This document shows, piece by piece, positions 18,851 through 55,002 of a stretch of DNA of 55,002 nucleotides. The notes beneath the pieces are model-generated. The model had not been told where the DNA came from, made no database searches, and saw only the letters and a list, made by a program, of their open reading frames with translations. Origin of the DNA: Candidatus Argoarchaeum ethanivorans (GTDB lineage Archaea; Halobacteriota; Methanosarcinia; Methanosarcinales; EX4572-44); the NCBI GenBank assembly GCA_905067555.1, contig CAJHIS010000003.1, positions 1 through 55,002 of the forward strand. The letters run 5' to 3'. The position numbers were made by a program, and so were the translations under genes. The number at the start of each line of letters is the position of its first letter. Position 1 is the first letter of the stretch.

Positions 18851-18946
18851 AGTGACCTCAACATTTGTAAAGGGCAAAAAATCTCTGTATCTGCACAACG
18901 AAGTTGTGCAGGTCGTCAAGTGACCTCAATATTTATAAAGGGTAAA
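18851..18946 (+). promoter_or_regulatory. Duplicated 28-nt promoter-like element flanking an inverted A-type hairpin
   Basis: agtgacctcaacatttgtaaagggcaaa (18851-18878) and agtgacctcaatatttataaagggtaaa (18919-18946), 25/28 identical. The second copy carries a TATA-like tttataaa about 35-50 nt upstream of the SD and GTG start. A third agtgacctcaa copy is at 18836-18846. Hairpin ctgcacaac-gaa-gttgtgcag at 18891-18911. Confidence 0.45.
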
Positions 18947-18982
18947 TGGAAGTTAGATCTACCCGGAGAGGTGACAACGGTT

Positions 18983-32363: not shown

Positions 32364-33284
32364 TTATGTACTTTTCAATTTATTAATAACTCTATTAATA
32401 GCCCGTAATATCAATGAACCGGAAAACATTTTATTTTCAGTGACGTGATCTGCCACCGAGTCACGTAGAATATATGGTGGATGTGAAATAGGAAATACGA
32501 TGGGTTCTATTTCCATCTCAGAAAATGTATTTTTGACATTTGTATGCACGGCTTTCATATCAAATCCAATATTTGAAACCAAGTTTACAGTAGGTATAAC
32601 GGTCAATGCATTTTGCATCCAGCATGCAAAGGTCCACTGGTAATCCCAGGTGTCTATCTTCCCTTGATACGCATTTTCAAATCTGTTTTTCCAATACCAA
32701 ACACTTTTTTTGACCCCAAGCAAGTCATCCAACCACCCACCATCGCGAATCTCAGGCCATATTTTCATCTCTACATCATAGTTGTCCCATGCCCGTCGCC
32801 AGGATGCCCAGCCCCATATATGTGGATAGCGGGAGAAATAGTAGCTATATTCAGTCCGCTTTCTTCCAAACTGGAAATTATCCCCGCTGATCATGGCAAT
32901 CCGTTTATCATCCCGATATTTCTCCAGCATTTCCTCGCAAAACCGGAAGAATGTTGGATGAGGCAGGCAGTCATCCTCAAGAATAATTGCCTCATCAACA
33001 GTATCGAACACCCAGTCCAGACCGCTTGACACACGGCGTTTGCATCCCAGATTCACGTCCGAGTAATTGGCCAGCACCTCGCAGTCCCAATCCACACCAT
33101 TGATGATAGCACGAACAGCAGCGCATTTCTCTGCATCATCCAGATGATCCGCACGCGGTCCGTCAGCGATAACCAGAAGTTTCGGCGGTCTGGCTTTCGC
33201 TATTTCTGCAAACACTCTTTTGGTGGTGTCTGGGCGGTTGAATATGATGAATGCGACCGTGGTTTTTAGTTGGTAATTGGACAT
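32364..33284 (-). CDS. GT-A fold glycosyltransferase (GNT-I / HlpA-like family)
   Basis: TVAFIIFNRPDTTKRVFAEIAKARPPKLLVIADGPR and ILEDDC (DXD-like) resemble this family. Family name is from memory. Confidence 0.6.
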   Translation of the reverse strand: MSNYQLKTTVAFIIFNRPDTTKRVFAEIAKARPPKLLVIADGPRADHLDDAEKCAAVRAIINGVDWDCEVLANYSDVNLGCKRRVSSGLDWVFDTVDEAIILEDDCLPHPTFFRFCEEMLEKYRDDKRIAMISGDNFQFGRKRTEYSYYFSRYPHIWGWASWRRAWDNYDVEMKIWPEIRDGGWLDDLLGVKKSVWYWKNRFENAYQGKIDTWDYQWTFACWMQNALTVIPTVNLVSNIGFDMKAVHTNVKNTFSEMEIEPIVFPISHPPYILRDSVADHVTENKMFSGSLILRAINRVINKLKST

Positions 33285-38092: not shown

Positions 38093-39548
38093 TTAATTTT
38101 TATATAATTTATGTATAATGGCATGAATGTTTGGAAAGTTTAATTTTAATGATGCACCAAATATAACAGTTACAAATTCTTTATTTTGTAGTATATATTT
38201 TGTGATGACCATCGGCATTTTTAAAAAATGATTTTTGAAACCTCTTAAAGTTAAAATTCTATCTATCGCCACCCCATACATAATTTTATTTTCAAATTCA
38301 ATTAACTTTTTAGAGTTATGCTCAACTGTATAATATGGTACTGATTTATCAGATAGCCAAAAATCATCATCAATTTGACCTGCATTTTTCATTTGATCAT
38401 AGACTTCTGTTCCTGGGTACACCCATAGTTTTCCAACCCCTGCGATCCAACTATAATGAATTTTTTGGGTTGTTTGAACCAAATCGATGGTTTCAGATAT
38501 TGTTTTATCATTTTCACCTGGAAAACCGCACATTAAAAAAGTTGTGATTGTAAAATTAAATGGTTTCAAAGTTTTAAATAAATTGATTACATCATTTTTA
38601 TTAATATTTTTATGTATTGATTTTAATAATTTCTGTGAGCCAGTTTCCAGCCCAAACATTATCTTTGTGAAGCCAGCACGTTCCATCCAGTAAAACATCT
38701 CTGATGAAATAGGTTTTACTCTTGCACTGCATTCAAAAGTAAGTTTTAAATTTGCATCAACCACCATTTTACAAAATTGTATTACTCGTGAATTATATAG
38801 CAAAAACGCATCGTCATGTATTTGAATATGTTTTAGACGTGGATATTTTTGTTTCAAAGATTTGATTTCATTTACCACATTGGTAATATCACGTTTTCTG
38901 TATTGTCGTTTAGAGATTGCCTTTAGACAACAAAAACTACAATCATACGGGCAGCCTCTTGATGTAATAATGTGTCCAATTGTGCGATTGGATTCATTAT
39001 CGAAAAAGACTTCATGTTTTGGAAATGGTATGGAATCCAAATCATAAATTAATTCTCTGGGTTTAGTTTGAACAACTTGTCCATTTTTATAAAACGCTAT
39101 GCCATCAACAGTTTCCAATGTAGCTTTGGATTCAAATGCTTTTATTAATTCACTTACAGCATATTCACCCTCTCCTATCACTGCAATGACATGAGGGTAT
39201 TTTTTAATTATCTGTTCATACATTACTGATGTGTGTATCCCCCCCAACAATTATGCGAGTGTGTGGGGAACAAATTTTCAACTTTTCAATGGCATTGAAA
39301 GTGGAAACTCTATTCATGCTAAAAATCTGAAATCCAATAATTTCCGGTTTAAACATCTCAAAACATTCAAATAACTTCTTTTCAGAAAAATCTTCATCAT
39401 AGTTGTTTAAGAAAAGTAATTTAACTTCATGTCCTTCTTTTTCAAGAACTGAGTATATATATGCTAATCCAATTGGATATGCAGTGTTTGGGTTGTGTTC
39501 AAACCGACTGGCTGGCTCAATCGATAATGTTGCAAGTAAAATCTTCAT
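38093..39548 (-). pseudogene. B12-binding radical SAM gene split by a +1 frameshift in a G7 tract
   Basis: N-terminal ORF 39216-39548 (B12-binding-type domain, ...RIIVGGDTHISNV*) and C-terminal ORF 38093-39250 (..GGIHTSVMYEQ..., CPYDCSFC). Removing one G from the run at 39239-39245 gives a continuous ...RIIVGGIHTSVMYEQ.... Confidence 0.75.
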
Positions 39549-40546
39549 GAGGATTCCTCATCAATTCTGGAGAAAAACTTTCTTAATCTCTTGACATAGG
39601 TATGCTCTTCAATTGCTCTCTTATATCCATTAATCATAATCTCTTTTCTTTCCGACTCATTTTCAAGAAAATATTCAATTTGTGAGAGTAAATCCTCAAA
39701 TGAAGTATATATTGACACTTCATTCCCAATCTCAAAGTAATCCTCTAAAGACAGAGCATAATTTGTTAACTGAAATCCGCCAAAAGCTGGGATCTCAAAA
39801 TTCCTTGCTTTTATTTGTTCAACTTTTTTATCAGATTTAATAAATTCATTCAGGTTCTTAATAGATGAAAAGACGCAACGGATATCATAAGAAGCGCTAT
39901 TGGATATATTAAGGTTTATTTTCGATGTATTAAAAATTTGCGTCATCTCTTCAAATGAAACTCTCCCATTTTTCCAGCCGTGTCCAAAACATTCAACCTT
40001 TATTCCCCTTTCCAGCAGCTTCCCAATGATCCACTTCCGGTAACCGCTGATACTGCCTATAAATGAAATGTCATATTTGTATTCTATAGTGTCAAAATCT
40101 ATATTTTCACGATATCCAAAAGATGCCCATTGGCTAAGAATGACATTCTTATAACCTATTTTATTATATTTAATCAATGAAAACTTATCAGTTGTAATTG
40201 AATAAGTAAAATGGGGTGCATAATATTTAGTAAAATTTTCAAATCTCCACGGATCATCACAAAACCAATTGATCGTGATATATTTACTTTTCAAATAATC
40301 TAACGTTTCAAAAGTAAACTCATCCCTCATCAATATAAAAAAAACAATGTCTGGTTTGATCTCATCGATAAATTCGACAATTCGTCTCTGTAATTCATCT
40401 TTTTTTGATAAATACTCGTCAAACCAAAATGGGATTACATCTTTTGTTATTTGCTTTAGAGCTGGATAAAATCCCCTCACATCTAACGATTCTCCACGAG
40501 ATTGTATTCCATAATCATACCTGAGAAATACTGGAACGATTTTCAT
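39545..40546 (-). CDS. CgeB-family glycosyltransferase-like protein
   Basis: 333 aa. KARNFEIPAFGGFQLTNY and the C-terminal YFLENESERKEI resemble CgeB/DUF3880-type proteins. Family assignment is from memory. Confidence 0.5.
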   Translation of the reverse strand: MKIVPVFLRYDYGIQSRGESLDVRGFYPALKQITKDVIPFWFDEYLSKKDELQRRIVEFIDEIKPDIVFFILMRDEFTFETLDYLKSKYITINWFCDDPWRFENFTKYYAPHFTYSITTDKFSLIKYNKIGYKNVILSQWASFGYRENIDFDTIEYKYDISFIGSISGYRKWIIGKLLERGIKVECFGHGWKNGRVSFEEMTQIFNTSKINLNISNSASYDIRCVFSSIKNLNEFIKSDKKVEQIKARNFEIPAFGGFQLTNYALSLEDYFEIGNEVSIYTSFEDLLSQIEYFLENESERKEIMINGYKRAIEEHTYVKRLRKFFSRIDEESS

Positions 40547-40549
40547 TTC

Positions 40550-41890
40550 TTACCACTTTTCATGAAGATTCTCAATATAATTCTCAAATGCTTTTAATAT
40601 ATATTTCATTTTTTCAGAATCAATCCCAGGATAAACTCCAATCCAGAAACTATTTTTCATTATATTATCTGTATTCTCTAAATCTCCAACAACCCTATAT
40701 TTTCCAAAATCGCCTCTTATCTCATCAAAACAGGGATGTTTTATTATATTTCCTGCAAAAAGCATCCTTGTCTGAATACCTTTTGATTCTAAATAGCCTA
40801 CAATATCATTCTTGGAAAAACCGCTTTCTTCTCGTACAGTAATTAAGAATCCGAACCAGCTAGGGTCGCTCCCATAAGTAGCTTCAGGCAATATAAAATG
40901 ATCTTCATATTTCTTTAACCCGTTGAACAATTCTTTGAAATTTTTTCTCCTTTTATCAATAAAACCAGGCAACTTTTCAAGCTGCGCGCATCCAACAGCC
41001 GCTTGCATGTCTGTAACTTTTAGATTATACCCAAAATGAGAATATGTATATTTATGATCATATCCTTTTGGTAGTTGACCAAGCTGCCACGAAAACCGTT
41101 TACTGCAGGAATTATCCTGCCCTGAATCGCACCAGCAATCCCTTCCCCAATCTCTAAATGAATGAATTATGTCTTTCAAAAGAGTGTTATCTGTTGTTAA
41201 AGCCCCCCCCTCCCCCATGGTCATATGGTGTGGAGGATAAAAGCTATATGTTGCTATATCTCCGAATGTGCCAGTGTATTTACCATTATATTCTGAACCA
41301 AGGGAATCACAGTTATCTTCAATAAGCCAGAGCCCATTCTTACTGCAAAAATTCTTTACTGAACCTATGTCAAAAGGATTACCCAGCGTATGTGCAAGGA
41401 AAACTGCTCTGGTTTTTTCACTGATCGCATTTTCAAGTTGAGAGCATTCGATATTATATGTTGGTATATTCACATCAACAAAAACAGGAACCAGATTATT
41501 TTGTATTATAGGTGCTACTGTAGTTGGGAAGCAGGCGGCAGTCGTAACCACTTCATCGCCTGGTTTTAATTGCCTATCTCCAAGTTTGGAAGAAGTTAAT
41601 GCTGTAATGGCAAGCAGGTTCGCAGATGAGCCCGAGTTCGTAAGAATACAATGTTTTACGCCCAGGAACTCTGAGAAGTTTTTTTCGAACTCTTTCGCAT
41701 ATCTGCCTGCCGTAAGCCAGAATTCAAGTGCAGAATCTACAAGATTGATTAATTCCTTCTCATCGTATACTCTACTGGCATAATTTACTTTTGATTTACC
41801 TGGTATGAATTGCTCTTGCTGATGAGCTAATGAATAATAGTCCTTGACCTTGCTGAAAATTTCCTTCTTGAGTTCTTCTTTGGTTTTCAT
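40550..41890 (-). CDS. rfbH: CDP-4-dehydro-6-deoxyglucose 3-dehydrase (E1), PMP- and 2Fe-2S-dependent
   Basis: 446 aa, near-collinear with enterobacterial RfbH/DdhC as I recall it (LTNSGSSANLLAITALTS, GFPTTV-like CFPTTVAP, DHKYTYSHFGYNLKVTDMQAA). His replaces the Schiff-base Lys (PPHHMTMGEGG). The C-X57-C-X1-C-X7-C motif is intact, counted in the translation. Confidence 0.9.
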   Translation of the reverse strand: MKTKEELKKEIFSKVKDYYSLAHQQEQFIPGKSKVNYASRVYDEKELINLVDSALEFWLTAGRYAKEFEKNFSEFLGVKHCILTNSGSSANLLAITALTSSKLGDRQLKPGDEVVTTAACFPTTVAPIIQNNLVPVFVDVNIPTYNIECSQLENAISEKTRAVFLAHTLGNPFDIGSVKNFCSKNGLWLIEDNCDSLGSEYNGKYTGTFGDIATYSFYPPHHMTMGEGGALTTDNTLLKDIIHSFRDWGRDCWCDSGQDNSCSKRFSWQLGQLPKGYDHKYTYSHFGYNLKVTDMQAAVGCAQLEKLPGFIDKRRKNFKELFNGLKKYEDHFILPEATYGSDPSWFGFLITVREESGFSKNDIVGYLESKGIQTRMLFAGNIIKHPCFDEIRGDFGKYRVVGDLENTDNIMKNSFWIGVYPGIDSEKMKYILKAFENYIENLHEKW

Positions 41891-41901
41891 AGTAGTATTA
41901 A

Positions 41902-42852
41902 TTATTTATATAGATGTAAATTATTCTCAAACCATGAAATAGTTTGTCTGATTCCATCATCTATGTGACATTTCGGTCGCCAATTAAAACTTCGATTTAC
42001 TTTTTCAATGTCAGCTTCCCATTTTTCTGTATCATATGCTCTTCCGGAAAATGAGTTCCACTTTATTTCGCTCTGTGAGTCTGTAATTTCAATAATTCTA
42101 TTAACAATATACGTAACTGTTATTTGAGAACCGCTGCCAACATTGAACACCTCTCCTTTTAATCCGGAGGCTATCTCCATGCTTTGTAAATAAACATCCA
42201 ATACATCTTCAATATAAATATAATCTCTTACAGCAGCAGGATCTCCCAGTAGTAATGGTTTATTCTGTAGCGCATTTGTTATCGCGTAAGTTATTAACCT
42301 GCTCTTATCATCAAAGGGCCCAAATGGAGAAAAAAGCCTTAATCCGATTATTGGTTTGTCCTTAGTCTGAGCAATTGATTGCCCATACAATGTTGCTGCA
42401 CATTTTGAGATACCATAAAAATTAATAGGTTCGCATATATCTGTTTCTTTCATAGGTTCTTTTTTTGGTCCATATTCGGAAGAACTTCCGGTATTAACAA
42501 AACATTTATAATCAATATCATTACAGGCATTGATCAAATTAACCGCTCCAAGAAGATTTGTTTCAATAACTTCCCTATCAGGACGCTGAACTCCACCATA
42601 CATACTAGAAGTCGCTAAATGAAAAATCACATCTGGTTCAATTTCGGTCATCAAACCTTTCAATTCTTTCTGGTTGAGTAAATCTATAGTATGGTTATGT
42701 AAATCTAAAAAACAATCCATTAGCCTCCATTTATTAGATGACCTGCGAGTTAGTATATGAATGTCGTGTCCATTGGAGCTAAGTCTTCTAACCAGATTAG
42801 AACCCACAAAACCTGTTGCACCTGTCACTAATATTCTATATGTTTTTGTCAT
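41902..42852 (-). CDS. Extended SDR NAD(P)-dependent sugar-nucleotide reductase/epimerase (YerF- or paratose/abequose-synthase-like by context)
   Basis: ILVTGATGFVGSNL, GSSSEYG, YGISKCAA (YxxxK). Confidence 0.8.
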   Translation of the reverse strand: MTKTYRILVTGATGFVGSNLVRRLSSNGHDIHILTRRSSNKWRLMDCFLDLHNHTIDLLNQKELKGLMTEIEPDVIFHLATSSMYGGVQRPDREVIETNLLGAVNLINACNDIDYKCFVNTGSSSEYGPKKEPMKETDICEPINFYGISKCAATLYGQSIAQTKDKPIIGLRLFSPFGPFDDKSRLITYAITNALQNKPLLLGDPAAVRDYIYIEDVLDVYLQSMEIASGLKGEVFNVGSGSQITVTYIVNRIIEITDSQSEIKWNSFSGRAYDTEKWEADIEKVNRSFNWRPKCHIDDGIRQTISWFENNLHLYK

Positions 42853-42861
42853 AAGGTTATT

Positions 42862-44646
42862 TCAATTATCTGCAATATTCATTCGATCCAAAATTAATCT
42901 CATCGATTTCAATTCTTTTTCACTCAGAAATGGTGATTGCTCTTCTATTGGCCTGTTGAACTCCAGTTTTGGATTCACATTTATTTCCATTGGTATAATC
43001 ACTTCTATAAAACTTGGGGACTGATATTTCAATAATGTTGGAATTATTTTATTCAATCCTTTAACAGTATTTACACTTTCTGCCCTGATACCATAAGCAC
43101 TTACAACTTCAACAAAATCCGGGCAATCGTATCCAATCACGGTAGATAAGAAGTGTTTATTGAAATAGAGTTCTTGGAATTGCCTCACCATCCCCAGACT
43201 TTTATTGTTGATCAGAAAAATGTTTATTGGCAATTTACTCCTGACTATAGTCTGAAGTTCTTGGATATTCATCTGAAATCCCCCATCTCCAACAATTACA
43301 ACAACTTGTTTACCTGGTTCTGCTAAAGATGCACCTATGGCCGCTGGTAATCCAAAACCCATTGAGCCCATACCTCCGGAAATGATCATTCTTTGATCTT
43401 TTTTTATCTCAAAAGATTGAGCAGCCCACATTTGATGCTGTCCAACATCCAGACAAATAATTGCGTCATTATCAACCAATTGTGATAACCGGTTCATAAA
43501 AAAGTTAGGATTGATCGAGCTATCTTCATTTTTAGGGATTGTGTATGAAGGGTATTTATTCTTACATAGATTTATCCACTTATACCAAGCATTTAAAGAT
43601 TTACTTTTATCATGCTTAATACTTTTATTGATTATAGACAAAAATACCTTTACGTCTGATTTGATAGTTAAAAACGATTTGACTTTACAATTTAATTCAG
43701 TTTCATCGATATCAATATGTATGATCTTTGCCGACCTAGCAAAAGTGTCTGGTCTTGTCCCAGTTTGCCTGTTATCAAGCCTTGAACCAAGAATTATCAA
43801 TAGATCACTGTTTGCCACAGCAAGATTACTGTAACGGTTCCCGTAAGCACCAATCATTCCAAAAAAAAGTGGATTATCATGAGGATATGCATCCAATCCC
43901 ATGAGAGATACAACAACAGGTATTTTTGTTTTTTGAACGAACTCAAATAATTCATTGGATGCGCTTGCGCTTCGTATTCCCCCCCCGACCAAAACAATGG
44001 GTCTTTCTGATTGTCCGATCAAGTCAATTATGGTTTGGATTTTAAATTGATCTCCTTCATTCTTGATTTTTTCTTTGAAATTGTGGTATTCTTCACTATG
44101 ATAGAAATCCGGTAATTCCTCCGGATTTATCTGAGCTCTCTGGATATTCATTGGAATATCAAGTAAAACAGGGCCTGGTCGACCTGATTTTGCTATAAAA
44201 ACTGCTTTTTGAAGTTGATATTTTATGGATTCAGGTTCAGTAATCATCATTGCATATTTTGTGATGGGTTTAACGATGCTGACAATATCAGTTTCCTGGA
44301 ATCCTATCTGTCTTATTTGCTTATCAAATTTATATTCATACGTATTTACTTGTCCAGTAATATACAAACATGGAATTGAATCAAAAAACGCACTACCAAT
44401 TCCTGTAATTAGATTAGTCGCCCCTGGGCCACTTGTAGCCATGGAAACTCCTATATTCAAAGTTACACGTGAATAAGATTCCGCTGCAAAAGCCGCTGCT
44501 TGTTCATGGTGGGTAGTAATACAGATGATATCTTTTCGATCATGGGTCGAATCGACTAAATGAGTTATTGCTCCACCAATAACTTCAAAAATATGACGTA
44601 CATCATTTTCAGCAAGAAAATCAATTACATAATCCGATAATTTCAT
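42862..44646 (-). CDS. Thiamine-diphosphate-dependent enzyme, acetolactate-synthase large-subunit-like (YerE-like by context)
   Basis: 594 aa. N-terminal Pyr domain (HEQAAAFAAESYSR, SGPGATNL), central domain, C-terminal TPP motif GSMGFGLPAAIGA...VGDGGFQMNIQEL. Confidence 0.85.
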   Translation of the reverse strand: MKLSDYVIDFLAENDVRHIFEVIGGAITHLVDSTHDRKDIICITTHHEQAAAFAAESYSRVTLNIGVSMATSGPGATNLITGIGSAFFDSIPCLYITGQVNTYEYKFDKQIRQIGFQETDIVSIVKPITKYAMMITEPESIKYQLQKAVFIAKSGRPGPVLLDIPMNIQRAQINPEELPDFYHSEEYHNFKEKIKNEGDQFKIQTIIDLIGQSERPIVLVGGGIRSASASNELFEFVQKTKIPVVVSLMGLDAYPHDNPLFFGMIGAYGNRYSNLAVANSDLLIILGSRLDNRQTGTRPDTFARSAKIIHIDIDETELNCKVKSFLTIKSDVKVFLSIINKSIKHDKSKSLNAWYKWINLCKNKYPSYTIPKNEDSSINPNFFMNRLSQLVDNDAIICLDVGQHQMWAAQSFEIKKDQRMIISGGMGSMGFGLPAAIGASLAEPGKQVVVIVGDGGFQMNIQELQTIVRSKLPINIFLINNKSLGMVRQFQELYFNKHFLSTVIGYDCPDFVEVVSAYGIRAESVNTVKGLNKIIPTLLKYQSPSFIEVIIPMEINVNPKLEFNRPIEEQSPFLSEKELKSMRLILDRMNIADN

Positions 44647-44658
44647 AATCTCACACTT

Positions 44659-45663
44659 TTAAGATTTAAAATTACTTTTGTACCATTCAATCGTTTCAAC
44701 CAACGAAGAATCCAACGTATATTTTGGACTCCAGTCAAGTTGTTCTTTAGCCTTTTTTGCTGATAAATATTGATTTCGTATCTCATTCTTAGCCTGGTTC
44801 AGGATCGTTGGTTCAAGGTCAGCATCCATTATATTAATTATCTTTTTTACAAGTTCTAAGACAGTTACCTGAATCTCAGTACTGAAATTGTATGCCCCCC
44901 CATGAGTACTTGTATCTGAAAGCATTTTTTCTGCAAGGAGCATGTATGCAAGCGCACCGTCCTTTACGTAGAAATAGTCGCGAATGAATGTCCCATCGCT
45001 GCGTATGACAGGACTTTCTCCATTTAGCAAGGAACGGATCGTACCGGGGATAATCCTGTTGAAATTTAGATCTCCTGGCCCGTAAAAATTCCCACACCGT
45101 GTAACGCAAACAGGCAACTTAAAGGTATTGTAGTAGGTGTATGCAATAAGATCGGCACAACTTTTGGAAACATCATACGGATGGGTACCTTGCAATGGCG
45201 TACTCTCGTCATACGGCAAATGCTTTTGACCCCCATATGCTTTATCACTGGAAGCAATCACCATAGCTTTGATAAGTGGGGATCTTCGGCATGCCTCAAG
45301 GAGATAGTATGTTCCACGTATGTTGGATTCGAACGTGGATAAAGGATTGCGGTTCGCTATTCCTACAATCGTTTGCGCTCCCAGATGGAACACCACTTCA
45401 GTTTCATACTCGTTCAATGCCCGTTCTAAAAGTTCATAATCTTCGAGCTTACCATAGACTACCGTTAAAGTATCTTTGATATAATCAAACTCATCGGAGC
45501 TACTCCACAATATAGATTTAGGAACGATATCACGGACCAATATAATAACATTGGCACCTTCATCAACCAATAACTTGGTCAGCCAAGAACCCACCAGTCC
45601 TGTTGCACCGGTAATGAATATATTCTTATCTTTCCAGTTATACTTCATCATCTTCCCATACAA
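44659..45663 (-). CDS. rfbG: CDP-glucose 4,6-dehydratase
   Basis: [34 protein letters not shown]. Immediately downstream of, and overlapping, rfbF. Confidence 0.85.
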
Positions 45664-46423
45664 CCCATGGCCTATTATTTAAATTCCATTGTTCATTGAC
45701 CGCTTCAACCTCTTTATAGGTATCTATGGCTTTCCAAAACCCACGATGCTCGTATACAGCAAGTTCCTTCTCTTTAGCCACCTTGGGCAAAGCATCACGC
45801 TCAAAGTTGGAATTTTCTAGTAGATAACTGAATATCTCACTATTTAATACGTAGAATCCGCCATTTATCAAACCATCAGTGGATGGTTTTTCTGCGAATG
45901 AGGTTGCAATTCCAGATTCTTCGACTTCGAGAACACCGAAACGAAATTGTGGTCTTGTTCCTGTTACAGTGGCAATTTTATTCTTTGAATGGTGGTATGA
46001 CAAAAGATTGGATATATTAACGTCTGCCAGACCATCACCGTATGTTAAGAAGAAAACGTCATCATCAATGTATTTTTCTATTTTTTTAACGCGTCCACCA
46101 GTATCAGTATCTTCACCTGTATCTGCAAAAGTGATATTCCAATTTTCCATGGCATGCGCATGAGTTGTCACTTCGCCTTTCCCTTTACCCATATGCAATG
46201 TAAAGTCGTTGGCAAACCATTCAAAGTTCATAAAATAGTCTTTGATCATGTTTCCTTTATAGCCAAGACACAATACAAAATCATTGAATCCATAATAGCT
46301 ATAGGTCTTCATTATATGCCAGAGTATCGGCATTCCACCAATTTCAACTAATGGTTTTGGCTTGTACTCTGTTTCCTCGCGCATACGTGTACCTTTTCCA
46401 CCACACAGGATCGCAACTTTCAT
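45638..46423 (-). CDS. rfbF: Glucose-1-phosphate cytidylyltransferase
   Basis: [39 protein letters not shown] and [13 protein letters not shown] are the characteristic RfbF pattern. 261 aa. Confidence 0.92.
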
Positions 46424-46570: not shown

Positions 46571-46758
46571 TCACATACCACCCATGCACTCCCCAACCCC
46601 TTCTCCCGACAACAGCTTAGCCTCCACCCCAGCCATCCCCAAAAACATCAAGCAGTTTTTGTGGCATGCCGTCCGGTTTTGATGCATCATACCTCATCCC
46701 CCCGAACCCGACAACATCCATAATCAATTCTGCCAGTGTGCCAACCATTTTGACAATG
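46571..46758 (-). pseudogene. C-terminal relic of a third GDP-fucose-synthase-family gene
   Basis: Minus-strand translation gives [31 protein letters not shown], then a frameshift, then ..VEAKLLSGEGVGE... It parallels [50 protein letters not shown] of the intact fcl. GC-rich, unlike both neighbours. Confidence 0.65.
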
Positions 46759-46764
46759 ATTATC

Positions 46765-47940
46765 TTATCTTTTCCTCAAACAACTACTCAAAGTTTCCAA
46801 GTCAGATTCTGAAAGCTCCGGATAATTTCCGCAGTAAAAACCACAGTTATGAATAAAATCTGTACCAGGTAAATCAAAAGTATTATGAACATATTTTTTG
46901 TAAAAAGGTTGGTTTTGAATATTTCCTGCAATCATTGGACGTATTTCTATTCCCGCCCCTGAAAACTGGAAGATGTATTTATCTCTCAATTTTGGAGTCC
47001 TGCATAAAATAGGGTATGCAAAACTTGAAAGACGTTTTAAATGTGTGTGATCCAATTGAATCAGATCAGGATTATCACGAAGGATTGCCTCTAACATCAT
47101 ATAATTATTTTCGCGTTTTGCGATGTTTTCCTCAATAAATTTAAGCTGATAAAGTCCAATGAAACCAGTTATTTCCGTGGGGCGCAAATTATATCCTAAA
47201 TCATAGAAAGTATACTTAGCATCAAACTCACTTTGAATATTAAAATTCTTACGCCATTTTAATTGCTGTACGGCCGTCAAATTTCTGTCCCACCCGTTTG
47301 CACGAACGATCCTAAGCATTTGTGCAAGCTCTGTATCGTCTGTGCATACCATACCCCCTTCAATTGTGGACATATGATGGGCAACGAAAAATGAAAAACT
47401 TGATGCTATGCTAAAATTACCTGCCTTGCCAGTGTGCAGTGCAGTTCCCAATGACTCACAATTGTCTTCTATCAAAACAATTCCCCTCTCATCACAAATC
47501 TGTTTTATTCGGTCCAAATCACCTGTAAAACCAAGTGCATTTGTGATAAAAAGAGCTTGAAGGTCAGTAGAATTTAGTCTTTCATTTAGAATATGTGACA
47601 TCACATTAAGAGTTTTCGGGTCACAATCCACTGCAACAGGTTCCATACCCAACTGAATGATTGGCATGACATTTGTTGACCATGTGAGTGCGGAAAAACC
47701 AATCTTGTCGCCATTTTTCAATCGCCCTATATTTTTCAATGCCTGCAACATTGCCAAATTTGCGCTGCCCCCGCTATTGAACAAAACTGAATCATTTCTG
47801 CCTTGAAACGCTGCAAATTCTTTCTCGAATACATAACATTTATTATCCATGCTCAATCGAGGCGCTTTCATGATAAACTCAGCGAGTGCTTGTTTTGTCT
47901 CATATTCATTAAGGAAAGCATTTTTCATTAATGGTATCAT
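46765..47940 (-). CDS. colD: GDP-4-keto-6-deoxy-D-mannose 3-dehydratase-like (ColD-like) DegT-family enzyme
   Basis: 391 aa. DegT fold (NSGGSANLAML, LIEDNCESLG) with His at the Schiff-base Lys position (FFVAHHMSTIEGG) and no E1-type Cys cluster. 4-nt overlap with an fcl-family gene. Confidence 0.75.
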   Translation of the reverse strand: MIPLMKNAFLNEYETKQALAEFIMKAPRLSMDNKCYVFEKEFAAFQGRNDSVLFNSGGSANLAMLQALKNIGRLKNGDKIGFSALTWSTNVMPIIQLGMEPVAVDCDPKTLNVMSHILNERLNSTDLQALFITNALGFTGDLDRIKQICDERGIVLIEDNCESLGTALHTGKAGNFSIASSFSFFVAHHMSTIEGGMVCTDDTELAQMLRIVRANGWDRNLTAVQQLKWRKNFNIQSEFDAKYTFYDLGYNLRPTEITGFIGLYQLKFIEENIAKRENNYMMLEAILRDNPDLIQLDHTHLKRLSSFAYPILCRTPKLRDKYIFQFSGAGIEIRPMIAGNIQNQPFYKKYVHNTFDLPGTDFIHNCGFYCGNYPELSESDLETLSSCLRKR

Positions 47941-48893
47941 TGTTTAGCACCTTCAAGTTTCAAATTCCTATATTCTGTTATTACTTGATCTATACCATTC
48001 TCCAAAGTTATTGAAGGATAAAAGCCAAGCGATTGTAATTTAGAAACATCCAAGCACTTTTTTAACATCCCATCCGGCATATTCGTATCCCAAACTATTC
48101 TGCCAGTATACTCAACTTTATTTGCAATTAATTCAGCCAACTCTTTGATAGATATATCAGTTCCACACCCGACATTAATAATCTCTGGTGAATCCCATTC
48201 TTCAACCAAAAACAATACTGCCTGTGAAAGATCGTCGACATGCATAAATTCTCTTCTGGCAATTCCACTTCCCCAAAGTACTTCTTCTTTTTTGTTTTCA
48301 TCAGTTGCATCTACAAATTTTCTAACCAATGCTGAAAGAACGTGAGAATTGTCAGGATCAAAGCTGTCATTTGTTCCATATAGGTTGCATGGCATAGGAT
48401 TTATGCAATTTAGGCCATACTGCTTATGGTAATACTGTGCTAATCTCAAACCTGCAATCTTGGCAAGTGCATACCCCTCATTCGTTGGCTCAAGTGGTCC
48501 AGTCATGAGATATTCTTCTTTGATAGGTTGAGGGCAGTCTTTTGGATAAATACACGAGCTTCCCAGGAATGCCAATTTTTTTACACCGGATTTATTGGAC
48601 TGATAAATGACATTGTTTTGTATCATTAGATTATCATACAAAAAATCCCCGGGATATTGCATGTTCGCTTGTATTCCCCCAACCTTTGCAGCAGCTAAGA
48701 ACACATAATCTGGAGAGTGTTGATTAAAAAAAATCTCCACACTTTTTGCATCACGAAGATCTAGTTCTTGCCTGGTAGCAGTGATTATATTTGAATAACC
48801 TTTATTCTGCAAAGCTCTCATAATCGCTGAGCCAACCATGCCTTTATGGCCAGCTATGAAGATGCTATCTTTTTTATTCATTTCATACGCCAT
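47937..48893 (-). CDS. GDP-L-colitose synthase-like (ColC-like) member of the GDP-fucose synthase family
   Basis: 318 aa. [42 protein letters not shown]. Second full fcl-family copy, translationally coupled to the ColD-like gene. Confidence 0.7.
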   Translation of the reverse strand: MAYEMNKKDSIFIAGHKGMVGSAIMRALQNKGYSNIITATRQELDLRDAKSVEIFFNQHSPDYVFLAAAKVGGIQANMQYPGDFLYDNLMIQNNVIYQSNKSGVKKLAFLGSSCIYPKDCPQPIKEEYLMTGPLEPTNEGYALAKIAGLRLAQYYHKQYGLNCINPMPCNLYGTNDSFDPDNSHVLSALVRKFVDATDENKKEEVLWGSGIARREFMHVDDLSQAVLFLVEEWDSPEIINVGCGTDISIKELAELIANKVEYTGRIVWDTNMPDGMLKKCLDVSKLQSLGFYPSITLENGIDQVITEYRNLKLEGAKQ

Positions 48894-49119
48894 TTTGATT
48901 ATAATTTTCCTCTATTTTCCAATTATCCCATACAAACTTGTATTGATGTGTCAAGTTATGAGTGGTTGCTATTTTTTGTTGGATTTCTATCATTCTCTGT
49001 TCGGCATTTGGCACAAAATCATAAAACGGAACCTGCATGTTATCAATTTGATTTACAAGACCGGTTTCAATTAAATGCTCAAACAAGCTGTACTCATCGC
49101 CTTCAATATTGATTTTCAT
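48883..49119 (-). CDS. Hypothetical 78-aa protein
   Basis: ORF abuts or overlaps the start of the ColC-like gene and shares its AT-rich composition. No motif recognised. Confidence 0.35.
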   Translation of the reverse strand: MKINIEGDEYSLFEHLIETGLVNQIDNMQVPFYDFVPNAEQRMIEIQQKIATTHNLTHQYKFVWDNWKIEENYNQNGV

Positions 49120-49446
49120 TAATCAATAATTTCATTGACATAAAAATGATAATCGCCCATACTCCTTTTGAACCAGAAGTCTGCTGCAATAGAGGCCAGT
49201 TAAGATGTTGATAGGTTAGTTTAACTTTAATCATTCAAAACCTCGATGTTGAGTATCCTGTTCTAATACCGAAGATGCATCATAGTGTCATGTCAAGCGT
49301 AAAGTGTCGCACTGACTATTTTAAATCCGCCAGCGTCATATAAGATAGGGTAGATGGTCGCTATGCGTTTCATGGTCGACGCGACACTATTCATATCACA
49401 TAAGGTTTTTATAGTCATACTGTTCCTTTTATATTGCACAGAATCC

Positions 49447-50922
49447 TTACAACCATTCCTGCCATGTCACATTCATCTGCATCATAATTCCCTTCAACTC
49501 CTCATAAATCTTCCTATCGAACTTCAATATTAGCACCCCATAAACTACCCCACCAAGCACAACAGGAACCAGCGCCAACCAAACATTGGATAACGGCACA
49601 ACCAACAAATACCCACCCACAACCAGCCCCATCGCAATAGAAGCTTTCAAAATATTCAGCAAACTGCTGCGCTCCACCCGAAGTGTGATTGTCCGTGCCA
49701 GAACACGCCGTGCCAGGATAGCATTCAAGGTCATTGTCACAAGGGTTGCAACCGCCGCCCCAGAGATGCCCATCACAGGAATTAACTTTGCATTCAATGT
49801 AATATTAGCAACAACTGCCACAGCTGTAATCTTGAACACCTCCTTTACTTGGTTCATTGCACTTAGATATGTGGTCAAAAAATACTGGAATATATTGACA
49901 ATTTGTACAGTAAACAGTATCATAAGTGTCGTATAATTCACAAAATCTGCGCCATAGAAATAATATAGCAACTTATCACCCAGCAAAGCCCCGCCAATAA
50001 ACAATGGGATTGCCAGTATGAGTGAATAGGTGAATGCGCGGGAGAGCGACTCTTCTATAAGCTCAGTCTCACCAATCTTATCCCACCGGCTGACCCTTGG
50101 CCACAATGTTCCATGAAGTGCACTCGTTGTAAATGCTGCAAGTGCGGTAAACTGGAATATGACCCGGTATACGCCCACATCCGCATTATTCAGGAAATAA
50201 CCGATCATCACAGTATCGGAATACATGAACACCAGACTTCCGCCTGAGACCAGAAACGACCAGAAGGAGAATGAAGATAAGCTTTTCAGGTGCCTCCAAC
50301 CAAAACGCACAAAACACAGATCAAAAAAACGCAGTTGTACGATGGCTCCAACAAGTGCTCCGGCAATAAAGCCTCCAGCCAGTCCTGCAACACCATAACC
50401 TAAAAAAACTGCAACGACTTGGACAGTAATTTGTGAAACACTACCAATAAAACCTGCCGTTGCACTAATCCCAATTTTTCCGCATCCAGTAATACCGTTT
50501 GAAATCGTTCCATGCAAAAGTGACGCACCAAGCGCCACCAGTAACCAGACGAATGTTCCCGCGTTATCAAGGTCTACAAAATAGCTGCGAAATGCGAACA
50601 GTACAACTACAACCGTTGTCACGAACACAGAGCGCAAGATAAAAAATGCACTAAAATATGCATCCTGCTCTTCCCCCTCACTGATGCGCTTGATCGCAGC
50701 ACCGCCAAATCCGCCATCAGTCATAAGACCGATGATGTTATAATATGCTAAGAACAGGAAATACGCACCAAGAACACCTGCGCCCACCGCATGCGCGAAG
50801 TACATCGTACTCAAAAATCCGATGAAAGTGAATGCAATCTGCCAGATGAGTGATACTATGCTCTGCCGCCGTACCGGCTCGATGGACATGATGCGGGAGA
50901 TGATAGTGTTTAATTTGAACAT
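49447..50922 (-). CDS. Wzx-type oligosaccharide flippase (MOP superfamily polysaccharide biosynthesis protein)
   Basis: 491 aa, about 12-14 predicted TM helices. Typical Wzx-like Gly/Ala-rich helices. Located in the glycan cluster. Confidence 0.8.
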   Translation of the reverse strand: MFKLNTIISRIMSIEPVRRQSIVSLIWQIAFTFIGFLSTMYFAHAVGAGVLGAYFLFLAYYNIIGLMTDGGFGGAAIKRISEGEEQDAYFSAFFILRSVFVTTVVVVLFAFRSYFVDLDNAGTFVWLLVALGASLLHGTISNGITGCGKIGISATAGFIGSVSQITVQVVAVFLGYGVAGLAGGFIAGALVGAIVQLRFFDLCFVRFGWRHLKSLSSFSFWSFLVSGGSLVFMYSDTVMIGYFLNNADVGVYRVIFQFTALAAFTTSALHGTLWPRVSRWDKIGETELIEESLSRAFTYSLILAIPLFIGGALLGDKLLYYFYGADFVNYTTLMILFTVQIVNIFQYFLTTYLSAMNQVKEVFKITAVAVVANITLNAKLIPVMGISGAAVATLVTMTLNAILARRVLARTITLRVERSSLLNILKASIAMGLVVGGYLLVVPLSNVWLALVPVVLGGVVYGVLILKFDRKIYEELKGIMMQMNVTWQEWL

Positions 50923-51998: not shown

Positions 51999-53027
51999 TT
52001 AAGCCGCATCCCCTTTTACCATCATCTTCACCAGTTCCCGGAGTCCAACCTTCGCCTCCCAACCCAGCTTCTCCTTAGCCTTCGTTGGGTCGCCTAACAA
52101 AAGCTCCACCTCGGTTGGCCTGTAATATCTTGGATCAATCTCGATCACAATATCACCAGTCGCCTGGTCAACCCCAACCTCATCCGTACCTTCTCCCTGC
52201 CACCCAATCTCGATCCCAACTTCCCTAAACGCAAGTTCCACAAACTCCCGCACAGAATGCGTCTTGCCAGTCGCAATCACGAAATCATCAGGCTCGTCCT
52301 GCTGGAGCATGAGCCACATCGCTTCAACATAATCTCCTGCAAAACCCCAGTCTCGCTTTGCGTCCATATTACCAAGATATAGTTTATCCAGCATGCCTTT
52401 CTTTATCTTCGCTGCTGCCATTGTGATCTTTCTTGTAACAAATGTCTCGCCGCGAATTGGTGACTCGTGGTTGAACAGGATGCCATTACATGCGAACATA
52501 TCATAAGCTTCGCGGTAATTTACGGTAACCCAGTAGGCGTATACCTTGGCTGCCGCATACGGGCTTCTCGGGTAGAACGGGGTAGTTTCCTTCTGTGGAA
52601 TCTCCCGGACCTTGCCGTAAAGTTCACTGGTTGAAGCCTGGTAGAACTTGGTTTTCTTTTCAAGGCCAAGTATACGTATAGCTTCCAAAAGCCGCAACGT
52701 CCCGACTGCATCTGCATTTGCAGTGTACTCGGGCGTATCGAAGGATACCTGAACATGACTCTGAGCTGCGAGGTTGTAAATTTCATCGGGTTGCGTTTCC
52801 TGGATGATCCGGATCAGGTTTGTCGAATCTGTCAGGTCACCATAGTGCAGGAAGAAATTCACGTTTCTCTCGTGTGGGTCTTTGTACAGATGGTCGATTC
52901 GCGCGGTGTTAAAGGAAGAAGATCTTCGCTTTATGCCGTGTACGATGTATCCTTTATTCAGGAGGAACTCTGCGAGGTATGCGCCGTCCTGTCCTGTGAT
53001 TCCGGTTATCAGGGCTGTTTTTGTCAT
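51999..53027 (-). CDS. gmd: GDP-mannose 4,6-dehydratase
   Basis: 342 aa. [60 protein letters not shown]. Full-length family pattern. Confidence 0.93.
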
Positions 53028-53108: not shown

Positions 53109-53315
53109 TTAATAGCTGCCACGAATCGGTTTTTCAAAATACCTTATAGTTTCCTTAAGCCCCACTTCTAACCCCACCACCGGCGCCCACCCAAGCACTT
53201 CCGCCGCCATAGCGATATCCAGAGCCTTCACACCAAACCCCTCAATCACATCATCACTGAGCAGAGGATCATACCCATACACACCCGCACCAAACTCCTT
53301 ACGCACCCTCACAAT
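53109..53315 (-). pseudogene. C-terminal relic of a UXS-like SDR gene (inside the 100-aa track ORF 53109-53411)
   Basis: ...DVIEGFGVKALDIAMAAEVLGWAPVVGLEVGLKETIRYFEK parallels ...[37 protein letters not shown] of the neighbouring UXS-like gene. Confidence 0.55.
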
Positions 53316-53463
53316 CTCCCTCTTATACAGGGACCGCCTTTTTGGGACGCTTTTAAGTTTTTGAACATCTTCTTCTGATAATAATTCCTGGATCCTTTCC
53401 ATTTGTTTCACCGCCTGTTGTGCGAGGAGATTCGTTCCGGATGAAACAAACCTTCATAAGGAG

Positions 53464-53847
53464 TCATCTACTTATCATCTCCTCGATTTCCAATAAAACA
53501 TCCTTCAGTCCGACTTCTTTTGATCGTCTCGGCACCTCCTCCCCTTTTACATGTTTATGGTGTGGATAAGTAGCGATCTCCAGAGGATGCGGGGCATTAT
53601 CATACCTGAAAACCATTTCGTCATTTACATTCGTCGAATGAAATCTATACTTCAGGTGAATCAGCCTATCTCTCTTTATATTTACCAGTTCCATAAATTG
53701 AAGTGTAGAGCCATCGATCATCCCTAATATCCCATGAACTATTCCAATACTCCTTGATTTTACCTCATATTCAACATCTACGTTTTCAACGAATATTGAA
53801 CTTCTTATGAGGCTTTGAATCTCTGAGAAGTAATCTATCACCTGCAT
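53464..53847 (-). CDS. DUF6516 / TumE-like toxin-antitoxin family protein
   Basis: 127 aa. LKYRFHSTNVNDEMVFRYDNAPHPLEIATYPHHKHV matches my recollection of the DUF6516 signature (RYDNAPHH...PHHKH). Confidence 0.55.
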   Translation of the reverse strand: MQVIDYFSEIQSLIRSSIFVENVDVEYEVKSRSIGIVHGILGMIDGSTLQFMELVNIKRDRLIHLKYRFHSTNVNDEMVFRYDNAPHPLEIATYPHHKHVKGEEVPRRSKEVGLKDVLLEIEEMISR

Positions 53848-54131
53848 GACTCAAGCATCCTCTCTACGACGATGCGCTCTTTCTCAAGAAATCCAAGTGC
53901 TTCATACTCAGCAGCCCATACCATGGCATCCTGGTCGTCCCCGGCAAGTCCTTTCTCGAATTTTTCAAAGAAATCTTTGCTGCCCATTCCTTCTCTCTCT
54001 TCAAAAGCTCTCAGCTTCTTCGTTGTTTCAAAGATACTCCTGTCCAGCAAAAGCTCTTTTCTTTTAAGCAAGTGTCCCAACACACCAATCGCCGTCACAA
54101 CATCAGGAACTTCCAGCTTTATCACGCCCAT
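53838..54131 (-). CDS. Hypothetical 97-aa protein, partner of the TumE-like gene
   Basis: Overlaps the TumE-like start by 10 nt. Helical and acidic. No motif recognised. Confidence 0.5.
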   Translation of the reverse strand: MGVIKLEVPDVVTAIGVLGHLLKRKELLLDRSIFETTKKLRAFEEREGMGSKDFFEKFEKGLAGDDQDAMVWAAEYEALGFLEKERIVVERMLESCR

Positions 54132-54263: not shown

Positions 54264-55002
54264 TTACAAAATTCCTTCAAAGTATTTAATCGTAAACCCC
54301 AAACCCTCATCCAGCCCAACCACCGGCTCCCATCCAAGCACATCCTTTGCCCTACTGATATCCGGTCTTCTAACCTTTGGGTCATCAACAGGCAGATCCT
54401 CGAAAGTAATTCGGGAATCACTACCGGTAATCTCAACAACAATTTCCGCAAACTCAAGCACTGTCATCTCCTCTTGATTTCCGATATTCACAGGATCCGA
54501 AAAGTCTGACATCATCAACCGAAATAGCCCACCAACAAGATCGGACACATAACAGAACGACCGCGTCTGCAACCCATCCCCATACACAGTGAGACCCTCT
54601 CCCTTGAGTGCCTGATTGATGAAATTCGGAACCACCCTACCATCACCTGCGCGCATACGCGGACCATACGTATTGAAAATGCGTGCAATTCGCGTATCCA
54701 TGCCGTGATACCGGTGATACGCCATCGTGATCGCCTCAGCATACCGTTTTGCCTCATCATATACCCCACGCGGTCCTATTGGGTTCACATTGCCCCAGTA
54801 TGTTTCTGGCTGCGGGTTCACAAGAGGGTCTCCATAGACCTCGGATGTGGATGCAAGCAGGAAGCGTGCCCCATGTTCTTTTGCAAGCCCAAGCATATTA
54901 TACGTACCGAGTGCTCCCACTTTTAGTGTCTGGATCGGCAGGTCAAGATAATCGATCGGGGAGGCAGGGCTTGCCAGATGGAACACGTAACCGATTTTAT
55001 CG
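54264..55002 (-). CDS. UDP-glucuronate decarboxylase (UDP-xylose synthase)-like SDR, 5' end outside the window
   Basis: [37 protein letters not shown]. The frame stays open to the window edge. Confidence 0.88.

Follow-up and report, generated by a model that had tools for sequence, protein, structure and literature searches.

The closest described counterpart of the genes analyzed here is the ColC-ColD pair of enterobacterial colitose clusters. ColD (WbdK; E. coli O55/Y. pseudotuberculosis; PDB 2GMS and 3B8X; 388 aa) has a histidine, His188, at the catalytic lysine position and is free of [2Fe-2S] cysteines, and ColC (WbdJ), the GDP-L-colitose synthase, is an extended SDR of the Fcl family with a Ser/Tyr/Lys triad and a Cys/His epimerization pair. 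The ColC gene lies immediately upstream of the dehydratase gene and overlaps it, in a cluster that also carries gmd and a fucosyltransferase-family glycosyltransferase gene; in E. coli O55 and Y. similis, the GT11 family is present. E1 (RfbH/DdhC/AscC), the CDP-6-deoxy-L-threo-D-glycero-4-hexulose 3-dehydrase, combines the DegT fold and the same histidine-for-lysine replacement with PMP-based C3 deoxygenation, but it has a four-cysteine [2Fe-2S] site and needs E3. In C. jejuni HS:5/HS:11, PLP- and glutamate-dependent ColD-type C3-dehydratases carry out a GDP-linked 3-deoxygenation of GDP-6-deoxy-4-keto-heptose, with epimerization and C4 reduction left to two distinct enzymes (PMC10440746). The O-antigen cluster of the Y. 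pseudotuberculosis O:6 type and of Y. similis, finally, serves both colitose and yersiniose A and unites E1, a YerE-type ThDP enzyme, an SDR, gmd, an Fcl-type reductase, a ColD-type dehydratase, and a fucosyltransferase-family glycosyltransferase.

We analyzed a stretch of 55,002 nucleotides from Candidatus Argoarchaeum ethanivorans (contig CAJHIS010000003.1), referred to as the window, in which the same modules occur in one cluster. All features given below are on the minus strand. A gene for a 318-aa epimerase/4-reductase of the Fcl family (47937-48893) is followed by a gene for a 391-aa ColD-type dehydratase of the DegT family (46765-47940). An ORF check returned exactly the coordinates of the preliminary description, with both ORFs intact, and confirmed the ATGA coupling it had reported: the junction reads ...AAACAATGATACC..., where the TGA stop of the 318-aa gene overlaps the ATG of the 391-aa gene. 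Strong purifying selection acts on both genes, with a dN/dS of 0.047 for the dehydratase gene against the related locus L168 and of 0.091 for the Fcl-family gene. Copies of the pair at 93 to 94% identity are present in other samples. Only one metatranscriptome, with 5% of the words, gave RNA evidence; its single exact 152-nt contig, inside the 318-aa gene, is a hint of transcription too thin for a claim of expression.

The histidine at the catalytic lysine position of the DegT-family protein had been read as the mark of a 3-dehydratase rather than an aminotransferase, and the alignments agree. H188 lies in FFVAHHMSTIEGG (residues 184 to 196) and aligns with ColD His188, the residue altered in PDB 3b8x (H188N) and 2r0t (H188K), as well as with the histidine of E1. 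It is a histidine in 133/133 non-aminotransferase sequences aligned and a lysine in the 3/3 aminotransferases of the outgroup; true aminotransferases encoded in related loci also retain the lysine. The E1 cysteine cluster, reported as missing just as in ColD, is indeed reduced to its first member: three of the four iron-sulfur cysteines are absent, and the one that is kept (C161) is also found in ColD. In contrast, the E1 encoded 5 kb downstream of the pair has the full C-X57-C-X-C-X7-C set (C194/C252/C254/C262). The 391-aa protein scores 224 with the NCBIfam RfbH model, far under the cutoff of 423. Two identities were thereby discarded, that of an aminotransferase, ruled out by the invariant histidine, and that of an E1-type enzyme, ruled out by the motif, the RfbH score, and the separate real E1 in the window.

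An alignment with ColD, which the preliminary description had suggested as a check, showed the active-site set to be conserved except at one position. D159, E162, S183, H188, H189, W217, R219, N251, and R334 are invariant among 31 sequences, nine canonical ColDs included, and correspond in ColD to D159, E162, S183, H188, R219, N248, and R331 where matched. We take Asp159, Glu162, Ser183, Arg219, Asn248, and Arg331 of ColD to be cofactor- or phosphate-binding residues; at the R219 position, E1 has a cluster cysteine. The exception is ColD Ser187, which is Ala187 throughout the 391-aa family. As Gly, Ser, or Ala occurs at this position in the wider superfamily, Ser187 is probably not a class-defining residue.

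The protein is assigned to PF01041 and has the DegT/fold-type-I aminotransferase fold. Its top match in the PDB sequence search was ColD (2gms; 195 bits, E 1.7e-56), against 149 to 153 bits for E1 structures, and in a fold search with its AlphaFold model (pLDDT 83, pTM 0.83) ranks 1 to 12 were all ColD chains, with a Foldseek TM of ~0.80. It is no close relative of the characterized ColDs, with which it shares 31 to 33% identity, and it belongs to a distinct subclade. A place among aminotransferases or other dehydratase classes had been named as what would speak against the proposal; in neighbor-joining trees, the protein never fell among aminotransferases and never inside the E1 clade. The E1 clade without it, the canonical ColD clade, and the clade of the 391-aa family were each supported by 100% bootstrap, while the cluster-free enzymes were monophyletic with respect to E1 at only 58%, in crude trees whose distance is undefined for the most divergent pairs, so that supports of deep nodes are rough. 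Judged from its sequences, the family branches off deeply on its own; it is widespread, distant from the E. coli/Yersinia ColD, and very conserved, at at least 65 to 74% identity over many bacterial phyla and archaea. We predict the 391-aa protein to be a PLP/PMP-dependent, iron-sulfur-free GDP-4-keto-6-deoxy-D-mannose 3-dehydratase (EC 4.2.1.168). We infer its GDP specificity from gene context and the family of its partner; literature searches brought up no biochemical data on any member of the family, and the review PMC8987622 has no list of GDP- versus CDP-binding residues.

The partner had been described as ColC-like, and this holds in part. It belongs to the Fcl family (320 bits with E. 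coli GDP-fucose synthetase), and its S112, C114, Y141, K145, and H184 align with S107, C109, Y136, K140, and H179 of the E. coli enzyme and are kept in 71/71 adjacent partners. These would form the Ser/Tyr/Lys triad and the Cys/His pair for epimerization. It is not, however, an orthologue of ColC: it is 38% identical to ColC of E. coli O55 and Y. similis and 53% identical to the Fcl encoded in the window, and the partners adjoining the 391-aa family form one clade that is sister to true Fcl, with canonical ColC outside. Neither is it a proper Fcl by the GDPFucSynFcl model (NCBIfam NF047922), where it scores 418.2 against a cutoff of 500. The partner thus resembles an Fcl paralogue that was recruited independently, and we predict it to be a GDP-L-colitose synthase, a functional analogue of ColC.

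We examined the gene context of the family in 80 related loci, 47 of which have full flanks and were used for counts within 10 kb. The pairing is conserved over about 80 genomes, with an Fcl-family gene directly upstream of the dehydratase gene in 69 of the 80 loci. Directly downstream, a GT11 gene is found in 32 of 71 loci. Of the full-flank loci, 18 have gmd at a distance of up to 10 kb and 13 have a GT10 gene near the pair. The gmd gene directly precedes the fcl-like gene in four loci (L056, L061, L063, and L079) and comes after the GT11 gene that follows the pair in four others (L064, L065, L071, and L076). The order in L168 (86% identical) is manC-gmd…GT10-MT21-fclLike-ColDlike-GT11. Cultivable carriers include Flavobacterium araucananum and Chryseobacterium balustinum (L063 and L075). 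In another recurring arrangement, the dehydratase gene is followed by Glyco_trans_1_2 and GT10 genes (L047, L044, and the P0007 contig), and the window has both transferases.

The gmd gene, 4 kb upstream of the pair (51999-53027), encodes a GDP-mannose 4,6-dehydratase with a TIGR01472 score of 628.6 (cutoff 415), and its predicted product, GDP-4-keto-6-deoxymannose, would feed both Fcl and the pair. The distinct, GC-rich fcl (29393-30328) is a true GDP-L-fucose synthase gene (506.5; cutoff 500) with a GC content of 51.3%, against 37% for the pair. The gene at 35658-36644 matches Pfam Glyco_transf_10 (alpha-1,3/4-fucosyltransferase-like GT10) with 56.9 bits and is a candidate fucosyl- or colitosyltransferase gene. 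The preliminary description had named these three as gmd, fcl, and a GT10 fucosyltransferase-like gene. A Glyco_trans_1_2 glycosyltransferase gene (39545-40546), whose homologues come right after the dehydratase gene in the recurring arrangement, encodes a candidate replacement for GT11, of which tblastn detected no homologue anywhere in the window. A Wzx-like polysaccharide flippase gene (49447-50922; weak Wzx/HfsF matches) heads the same-strand gene run and is 73% identical to that of L168. The window contains no manC/manB and no E3 gene, and its ORF at 32364-33284 has no Pfam match.

A gene remnant lies on either side of the pair. Upstream is the C-terminal 78 aa of an FkbM/Methyltransf_21 protein (48883-49119), 66% identical to residues 126 to 195 of the protein encoded at 8456-9067 in L168; a gene of this kind precedes the pair in related loci. 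Downstream, in the spacer between the dehydratase gene and rfbF, comparison with Fcl C-termini identified an fcl C-terminus remnant (46620-46748).

Directly downstream of the pair is a CDP-sugar module (40550-46423), comprising rfbF (45638-46423; 315, cutoff 300), an rfbG-like gene (44659-45663), a gene for a YerE-like ThDP enzyme (42862-44646; sharing 43% identity with its homologue in Y. similis), an SDR gene (41902-42852), and a true E1/RfbH gene (40550-41890; 741 with the RfbH model). The island had been proposed to make GDP-fucose, GDP-colitose, and a CDP-dideoxyhexose at once. The true fcl, gmd, the pair, and the CDP route support this, but the YerE-like enzyme makes a branched, yersiniose-type 3,6-dideoxyhexose likelier than a plain one as the CDP-linked product. 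The Yersinia cluster differs from this one in having canonical ColD/ColC, manC/manB, and GT11 and in serving an LPS O-antigen, whereas the cluster in the window is archaeal, has an SDR that is not a YerF homologue, and adjoins aglB. That gene (25139-27796), for an archaeosortase-A-associated STT3 oligosaccharyltransferase, marks the inner edge of a strain-variable island, and the sugar cluster abuts it.

On these grounds, the pair probably represents the branch of the GDP-mannose pathway leading to GDP-L-colitose (3,6-dideoxy-L-xylo-hexose, or 3-deoxy-L-fucose). Gmd would supply GDP-4-keto-6-deoxy-D-mannose. The 391-aa enzyme would take PMP from glutamate and form a ketimine at C4; His188 would then abstract the PMP C4' proton, the C3 hydroxyl would leave, and hydrolysis of the ene-amine would yield GDP-4-keto-3,6-dideoxymannose and ammonia, all without an iron-sulfur cluster or an E3-type reductase. 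The Fcl-type partner would epimerize C5 by Cys114/His184 and reduce C4 with NAD(P)H by Ser112/Tyr141/Lys145 to give GDP-L-colitose. Colitose would be transferred to a lipid-linked glycan, probably by the GT10 or the Glyco_trans_1_2 enzyme encoded downstream, and the glycan would be flipped by Wzx and used by AglB. In this scheme we infer GDP rather than CDP, a hexose rather than a heptose, the L-xylo product, and the identity of the transferase. Weighing against it are the low identity to characterized ColDs, the alanine at the Ser187 position, the weak bootstrap for a cluster-free clade, the missing GT11 and truncated methyltransferase, the CDP-glucose genes just downstream of the pair, and the absence of manC/manB from the window.

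It is extremely improbable that the 391-aa protein is an ordinary sugar aminotransferase, such as a GDP-perosamine synthase-like enzyme with an incidental histidine. Membership of the DegT family, the presence of GDP-perosamine synthase among the next-best PDB matches, and protein names at NCBI, for instance "DegT/DnrJ/EryC1/StrS family aminotransferase", would fit, but Per-type enzymes score ~95 bits against 195 for ColD and the lysine is replaced in all of the more than 130 relatives. We also consider it very improbable that the enzyme is an E3-independent CDP-4-keto-6-deoxyglucose 3-dehydratase feeding the rfbF/rfbG/YerE module. The JGI names (CDP-6-deoxy-D-xylo-4-hexulose-3-dehydrase) imply a CDP substrate, the gene is directly upstream of rfbF-rfbG in a window without an E3 gene, 10 of the 47 full-flank loci have rfbF no more than 10 kb away, and some rfbF loci (L044, L046, and L058) have no E1 within range. 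However, most loci have no rfbF, the same operon in the window encodes a genuine E1 complete with all four cluster cysteines, and the nearest relative is ColD, not E1. The fcl remnant at the rfbF junction indicates that the adjacency is a recombination joint and not an old functional unit. L044, which has rfbF/rfbG/YerE without E1, is uninformative, as its CDP module has a different chemistry (C-methyltransferase, NeuB-like) in which 3-deoxygenation need not be involved. The coupled partner, moreover, is of the Fcl family, which to our knowledge is known only for GDP-sugars.

A GDP-linked substrate other than that proposed, such as GDP-6-deoxy-4-keto-heptose, with a 3,6-dideoxyheptose or another isomer as the product, is quite improbable. 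The C. jejuni heptose C3-dehydratases fall in the canonical ColD clade, at 62 to 67% identity to ColD (PMC10440746), so the sugar is not deducible from sequence, and two related loci (L001/L012 and L004/L015) have genes of the GDP-heptose type (GHMP kinase, SIS, and NTP-transferase-HAD) within 10 kb. Against this stand the equivalog-level gmd, the lack of any match to a heptose-pathway family among the window ORFs scanned, the GHMP kinase count (2 of the 47 full-flank loci, against 18 with gmd), and the bifunctional Fcl type of the partner, a task divided between two enzymes in Campylobacter (PMC10440746). It is unlikely, finally, that the pair is an orphaned cassette fragment whose nucleotide sugar is perhaps made but not incorporated, or that the fcl-like gene does no more than raise the capacity for GDP-fucose. 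The flanking remnants, among them the truncated methyltransferase, and the missing GT11 would agree with this, as would read depth in a cold-seep metagenome, where the 40- to 49-kb segment is 10 to 100 times lower than the wzx-gmd segment and is thus a minority variant. Yet the ATGA-coupled ORFs are intact and under strong purifying selection, the copies at 93 to 94% identity exist in other samples, and the dehydratase/Glyco_trans_1_2/GT10 arrangement recurs.

With GDP-L-colitose as the preferred product, we propose tentatively, at somewhat less than even confidence, that the pair is a second route to GDP-colitose (or to an O-methylated or isomeric 3,6-dideoxy-L-hexose), one that was put together independently and has spread horizontally over many bacterial phyla and methanogen-related archaea, and that together with a yersiniose-type CDP sugar it decorates an AglB-dependent glycan in an Argoarchaeum-like archaeon. 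We know of no archaeal glycan for which 3,6-dideoxyhexoses have been described, so that this would be the first case. The enzymes of the pair come from an uncharacterized branch; as their chemistry is already textbook, they would widen its scope and improve annotation without adding to the mechanism. Database entries for the family, in the thousands, are named as generic DegT aminotransferases or CDP-sugar E1 dehydrases, and if the family is a second one for GDP-colitose synthesis, these annotations would need correction. An uncultured cold-seep lineage of ethane/alkane oxidizers would then display enterobacterial-style 3,6-dideoxy sugars, encoded in a strain-variable island starting at aglB that would be analogous to O-antigen variation.

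The 318-aa Fcl-family partner (47937-48893) and the 391-aa DegT-family dehydratase (46765-47940), both on the minus strand, lie where the preliminary description had placed them, and their coupling is visible in the DNA: the junction reads ...AAACAATGATACC..., where the stop codon of the partner gene and the start codon of the dehydratase gene overlap in ATGA. Residues 184 to 196 of the 391-aa protein are FFVAHHMSTIEGG. In HMMER alignments to the ColD crystal sequences, the first His of this stretch aligns with ColD His188, the position altered in 3b8x (H188N) and 2r0t (H188K), which bears out the His claimed at the catalytic Lys position. The genuine E1/RfbH of the window (40550-41890, minus strand; 741 bits; cutoff, 423) has the iron-sulfur set C194/C252/C254/C262; its GRDCWCDSGQDNSCSKRF aligns with WDRNLTAVQQLKWRKNF of the 391-aa protein, in which the first cysteine alone is kept, as in ColD, so the reported lack of the E1 cluster holds. 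The other genes named earlier were also found, namely, gmd (628.6 bits; cutoff, 415), a distinct GC-rich fcl (29393-30328; 506.5 bits; cutoff, 500; GC content of 51% versus 37% for the pair), and a GT10 gene matching Pfam Glyco_transf_10.

By sequence, the top solved-structure match of the 391-aa protein is ColD (195 bits, E value of 1.7e-56), followed by E1 (149 to 153 bits) and GDP-perosamine synthase (about 95 bits). A PDB fold search with its AlphaFold model (pLDDT 83, pTM 0.83) returned ColD chains at ranks 1 to 12 (TM of about 0.80), with E1 and perosamine synthase after them. The residues that we take to be the cofactor and phosphate set of ColD (Asp159, Glu162, Ser183, His188, Arg219, Asn248, and Arg331) correspond to D159, E162, S183, H188, R219, N251, and R334 and are invariant in a 31-sequence alignment of the 391-aa family and nine canonical ColDs; at the Arg219 position, E1 carries a cluster cysteine. 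The alignment proposed earlier thus found the conserved ColD active-site residues kept with a sole departure, Ala187 in place of Ser187, a position occupied by Gly, Ser, or Ala across the wider superfamily. E. coli O55 ColD, however, shares only 31 to 33% identity with the protein.

Sequence comparison places the 391-aa protein in a very large family whose conservation is striking. Copies at 93 to 94% identity occur in other metagenomes, 65 to 74% identical copies are found in Bacteroidota, Proteobacteria, Planctomycetota, Verrucomicrobiota, Patescibacteria, Spirochaetes, and a Methanoregula, and the best 150 matches among 1.84 billion scanned cluster representatives form a continuum from 67% down to 32% identity. 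All aligned relatives have the His and lack the cysteine motif. In neighbor-joining trees, E1, canonical ColD, and the window dehydratase family with its two nearest representatives each form a clade with 100% bootstrap support, while monophyly of all cluster-free enzymes relative to E1 has moderate support only (58%, crude distance). The protein had been described as a 3-dehydratase rather than an aminotransferase, and the trees never placed it among the aminotransferases or within E1.

The partner, described as ColC-like, does belong to the Fcl family but is not a ColC ortholog. It shares 38% identity with ColC, recovered from the E. coli O55 (L086, 8081-9004) and Yersinia similis (L087, 8082-9008) loci, versus 53% with the window's own Fcl, and its score of 418 bits with the NCBIfam Fcl equivalog falls short of the 500-bit cutoff, which the second fcl passes. 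A tree of 80 Fcl-family genes taken from related loci groups the neighbors of 391-aa-family dehydratases in a single clade that is sister to true Fcl, with canonical ColC branching outside. Residues S112, C114, Y141, K145, and H184 correspond to E. coli S107, C109, Y136, K140, and H179 (offset of +5), the catalytic residues of GDP-fucose synthase; all five are kept in 71 of 71 such partners. Since colitose is 3-deoxy-L-fucose, Fcl-type C5 epimerization and C4 reduction of the ColD product would give exactly GDP-L-colitose. Mixed pairings also occur: a 391-aa-family dehydratase has a canonical-ColC-type reductase as its partner in L060 (1600-2508), a MAG contig of a Candidatus Parabeggiatoa sp., and a true-Fcl-type gene in L068, L080, and L084. 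Given these pairings, the two components are exchangeable.

We surveyed the neighborhoods of 81 nonredundant related loci. The dehydratase gene is directly preceded by an Fcl-family gene in 69 of 80 loci and directly followed by a GT11 (alpha-1,2-fucosyltransferase family) gene in 32 of 71; the canonical colitose clusters of E. coli O55 and Y. similis also carry GT11 genes. Where at least 8 kb was available on both sides (47 loci), gmd was within range in 18, GT10 in 13, rfbF in 10, and a heptose-type GHMP kinase in 2. L168, a close archaeal-type relative at 86% identity, carries a full cassette, manC-gmd-rSAM-wzx…GT10-MT21-fclLike-ColDlike-GT11-GT2-GT4; between it and the window, the dehydratase has a dN/dS of 0.047 and the partner one of 0.091.

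In L168, L002, and L004, the fcl-like gene is directly preceded by an intact FkbM/Methyltransf_21 gene. In the window, a 78-aa ORF (48883-49119, minus strand), the remnant of the C-terminal third of such a methyltransferase (66% identity to L168 residues 126 to 195), marks a recombination breakpoint. A remnant of an Fcl C terminus (about 46620-46748, minus strand) in the 342-bp dehydratase/rfbF spacer is a second scar, and the CDP-sugar module therefore joined secondarily there. This module (40550-46423, minus strand), comprising rfbF, an rfbG-like gene, a YerE-like ThDP enzyme (43% identity to the Y. similis homolog), an SDR, and E1, stands in the place of GT11, for which tblastn found no match in the window. 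It is followed by a Glyco_trans_1_2 glycosyltransferase, a radical-SAM gene, an SDR, and GT10. Because a dehydratase followed by Glyco_trans_1_2 and then GT10 is seen again in the P0007 contig and Chitinophaga L047, and a Glyco_trans_1_2 gene likewise follows the dehydratase in L044 (with GT10 upstream), these two are plausible GT11 substitutes. At 38093-39250 (minus strand), a B12-type radical-SAM gene with a TTG start codon and a 295-bp gap upstream lacks most of the B12-binding domain (profile matches begin near position 100) and may be truncated or frameshifted; several related loci have intact relatives (42 to 46% identity).

Y. similis has the same combination as the window, E1, a YerE-type enzyme, gmd, a reductase, and a ColD-type dehydratase, in canonical versions, and 391-aa-family versions occur in Curvibacter, Thiobacillus, a gammaproteobacterium, and Chitinophaga. 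The O:6 antigen of Yersinia pseudotuberculosis contains colitose and yersiniose A. That rfbF-rfbG-E1 and the YerE-like enzyme (replaced at some loci by a split transketolase) accompany the pair and GT10 again and again, in the window as in unrelated bacteria (L007, L016, L022, L047, and, with the canonical versions, L087), suggests a shared colitose and yersiniose-type epitope. Of the CDP-dideoxyhexose route claimed earlier, the separate CDP route with E1 stands, and the sugar is amended to a probably branched dideoxyhexose, given the YerE-like enzyme. No E3 reductase gene was found in the window.

The pair is thus predicted most likely to make GDP-colitose, with a separate GDP-fucose route alongside, in agreement with the preliminary description. 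Sequence alone does not separate the possible sugars, since the Campylobacter jejuni heptose 3-dehydratases are 62 to 67% identical to ColD (PMC10440746). A GDP-6-deoxy-4-keto-heptose or other GDP-sugar substrate, giving a product other than colitose, is nevertheless very unlikely with a true gmd and no detected heptose genes in the window and a partner of the bifunctional Fcl type. We consider it most improbable that the dehydratase acts on CDP-4-keto-6-deoxyglucose and feeds the adjacent rfbF/rfbG/YerE module, as its position next to rfbF and the JGI names, which imply a CDP substrate, might indicate: the window already has a genuine E1, a scar lies at the dehydratase/rfbF junction, ColD is the nearest relative, and the partner's family is GDP-specific, GDP-sugars being to our knowledge its sole substrates. 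The scars on both sides and the missing GT11 would also fit an orphan fragment of a larger cassette, with the sugar not incorporated, or an fcl-like gene merely adding GDP-fucose capacity; with ORFs that are intact, coupled, and strongly constrained, this is unlikely.

The flanking housekeeping genes are syntenic with and 94 to 99% identical to those of Candidatus Argoarchaeum ethanivorans Eth-Arch1 (L170, RPGO01000025). Comparison of window positions 25139-53027 with L170 and L169 shows that Eth-Arch1 synteny reaches the PIN gene, after which AglB drops to 81% identity; the next 10 kb in Eth-Arch1 hold none of the window's glycan genes and entirely different ones instead. GoM-Arc1-GOS and the window have fcl-GT2-AglB in common (93 to 95% identity). 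In a cold-seep metagenome (run X2), contig depth is 500 to 1800x over wzx-gmd (49 to 53 kb) versus 5 to 60x over 40 to 49 kb, and the pair and CDP-sugar modules are variants carried by a minority of that population. Thus, the cluster is a strain-variable (hypervariable), low-GC glycosylation island anchored at aglB. A 104-bp segment of the wzx/fcl-like spacer (49286-49389) matches, with 12 differences, a second run-X1 contig (2274 nt; depth of 821 versus 154 for the main contig), which suggests that the internal joint of the island holds a repeated element. A TumE/TumA-like toxin-antitoxin pair (53464-54131, minus strand; 59.8 and 41.4 bits, each under its cutoff) sits between a UXS-like SDR gene (54264-54986) and an SDR fragment (53109-53411) duplicating its C terminus (61% over 33 aa). 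At 18755-22954 (plus strand), a 1399-aa HAD phosphatase/trehalose-phosphatase/GH65 phosphorylase fusion is encoded that is 95% conserved in Eth-Arch1.

As judged from the trees and identities, the pair is not orthologous to the characterized ColD/ColC pair and is a member of a large, uncharacterized sister family, which databases mislabel. The system is of a known kind, but the family and the host are new.
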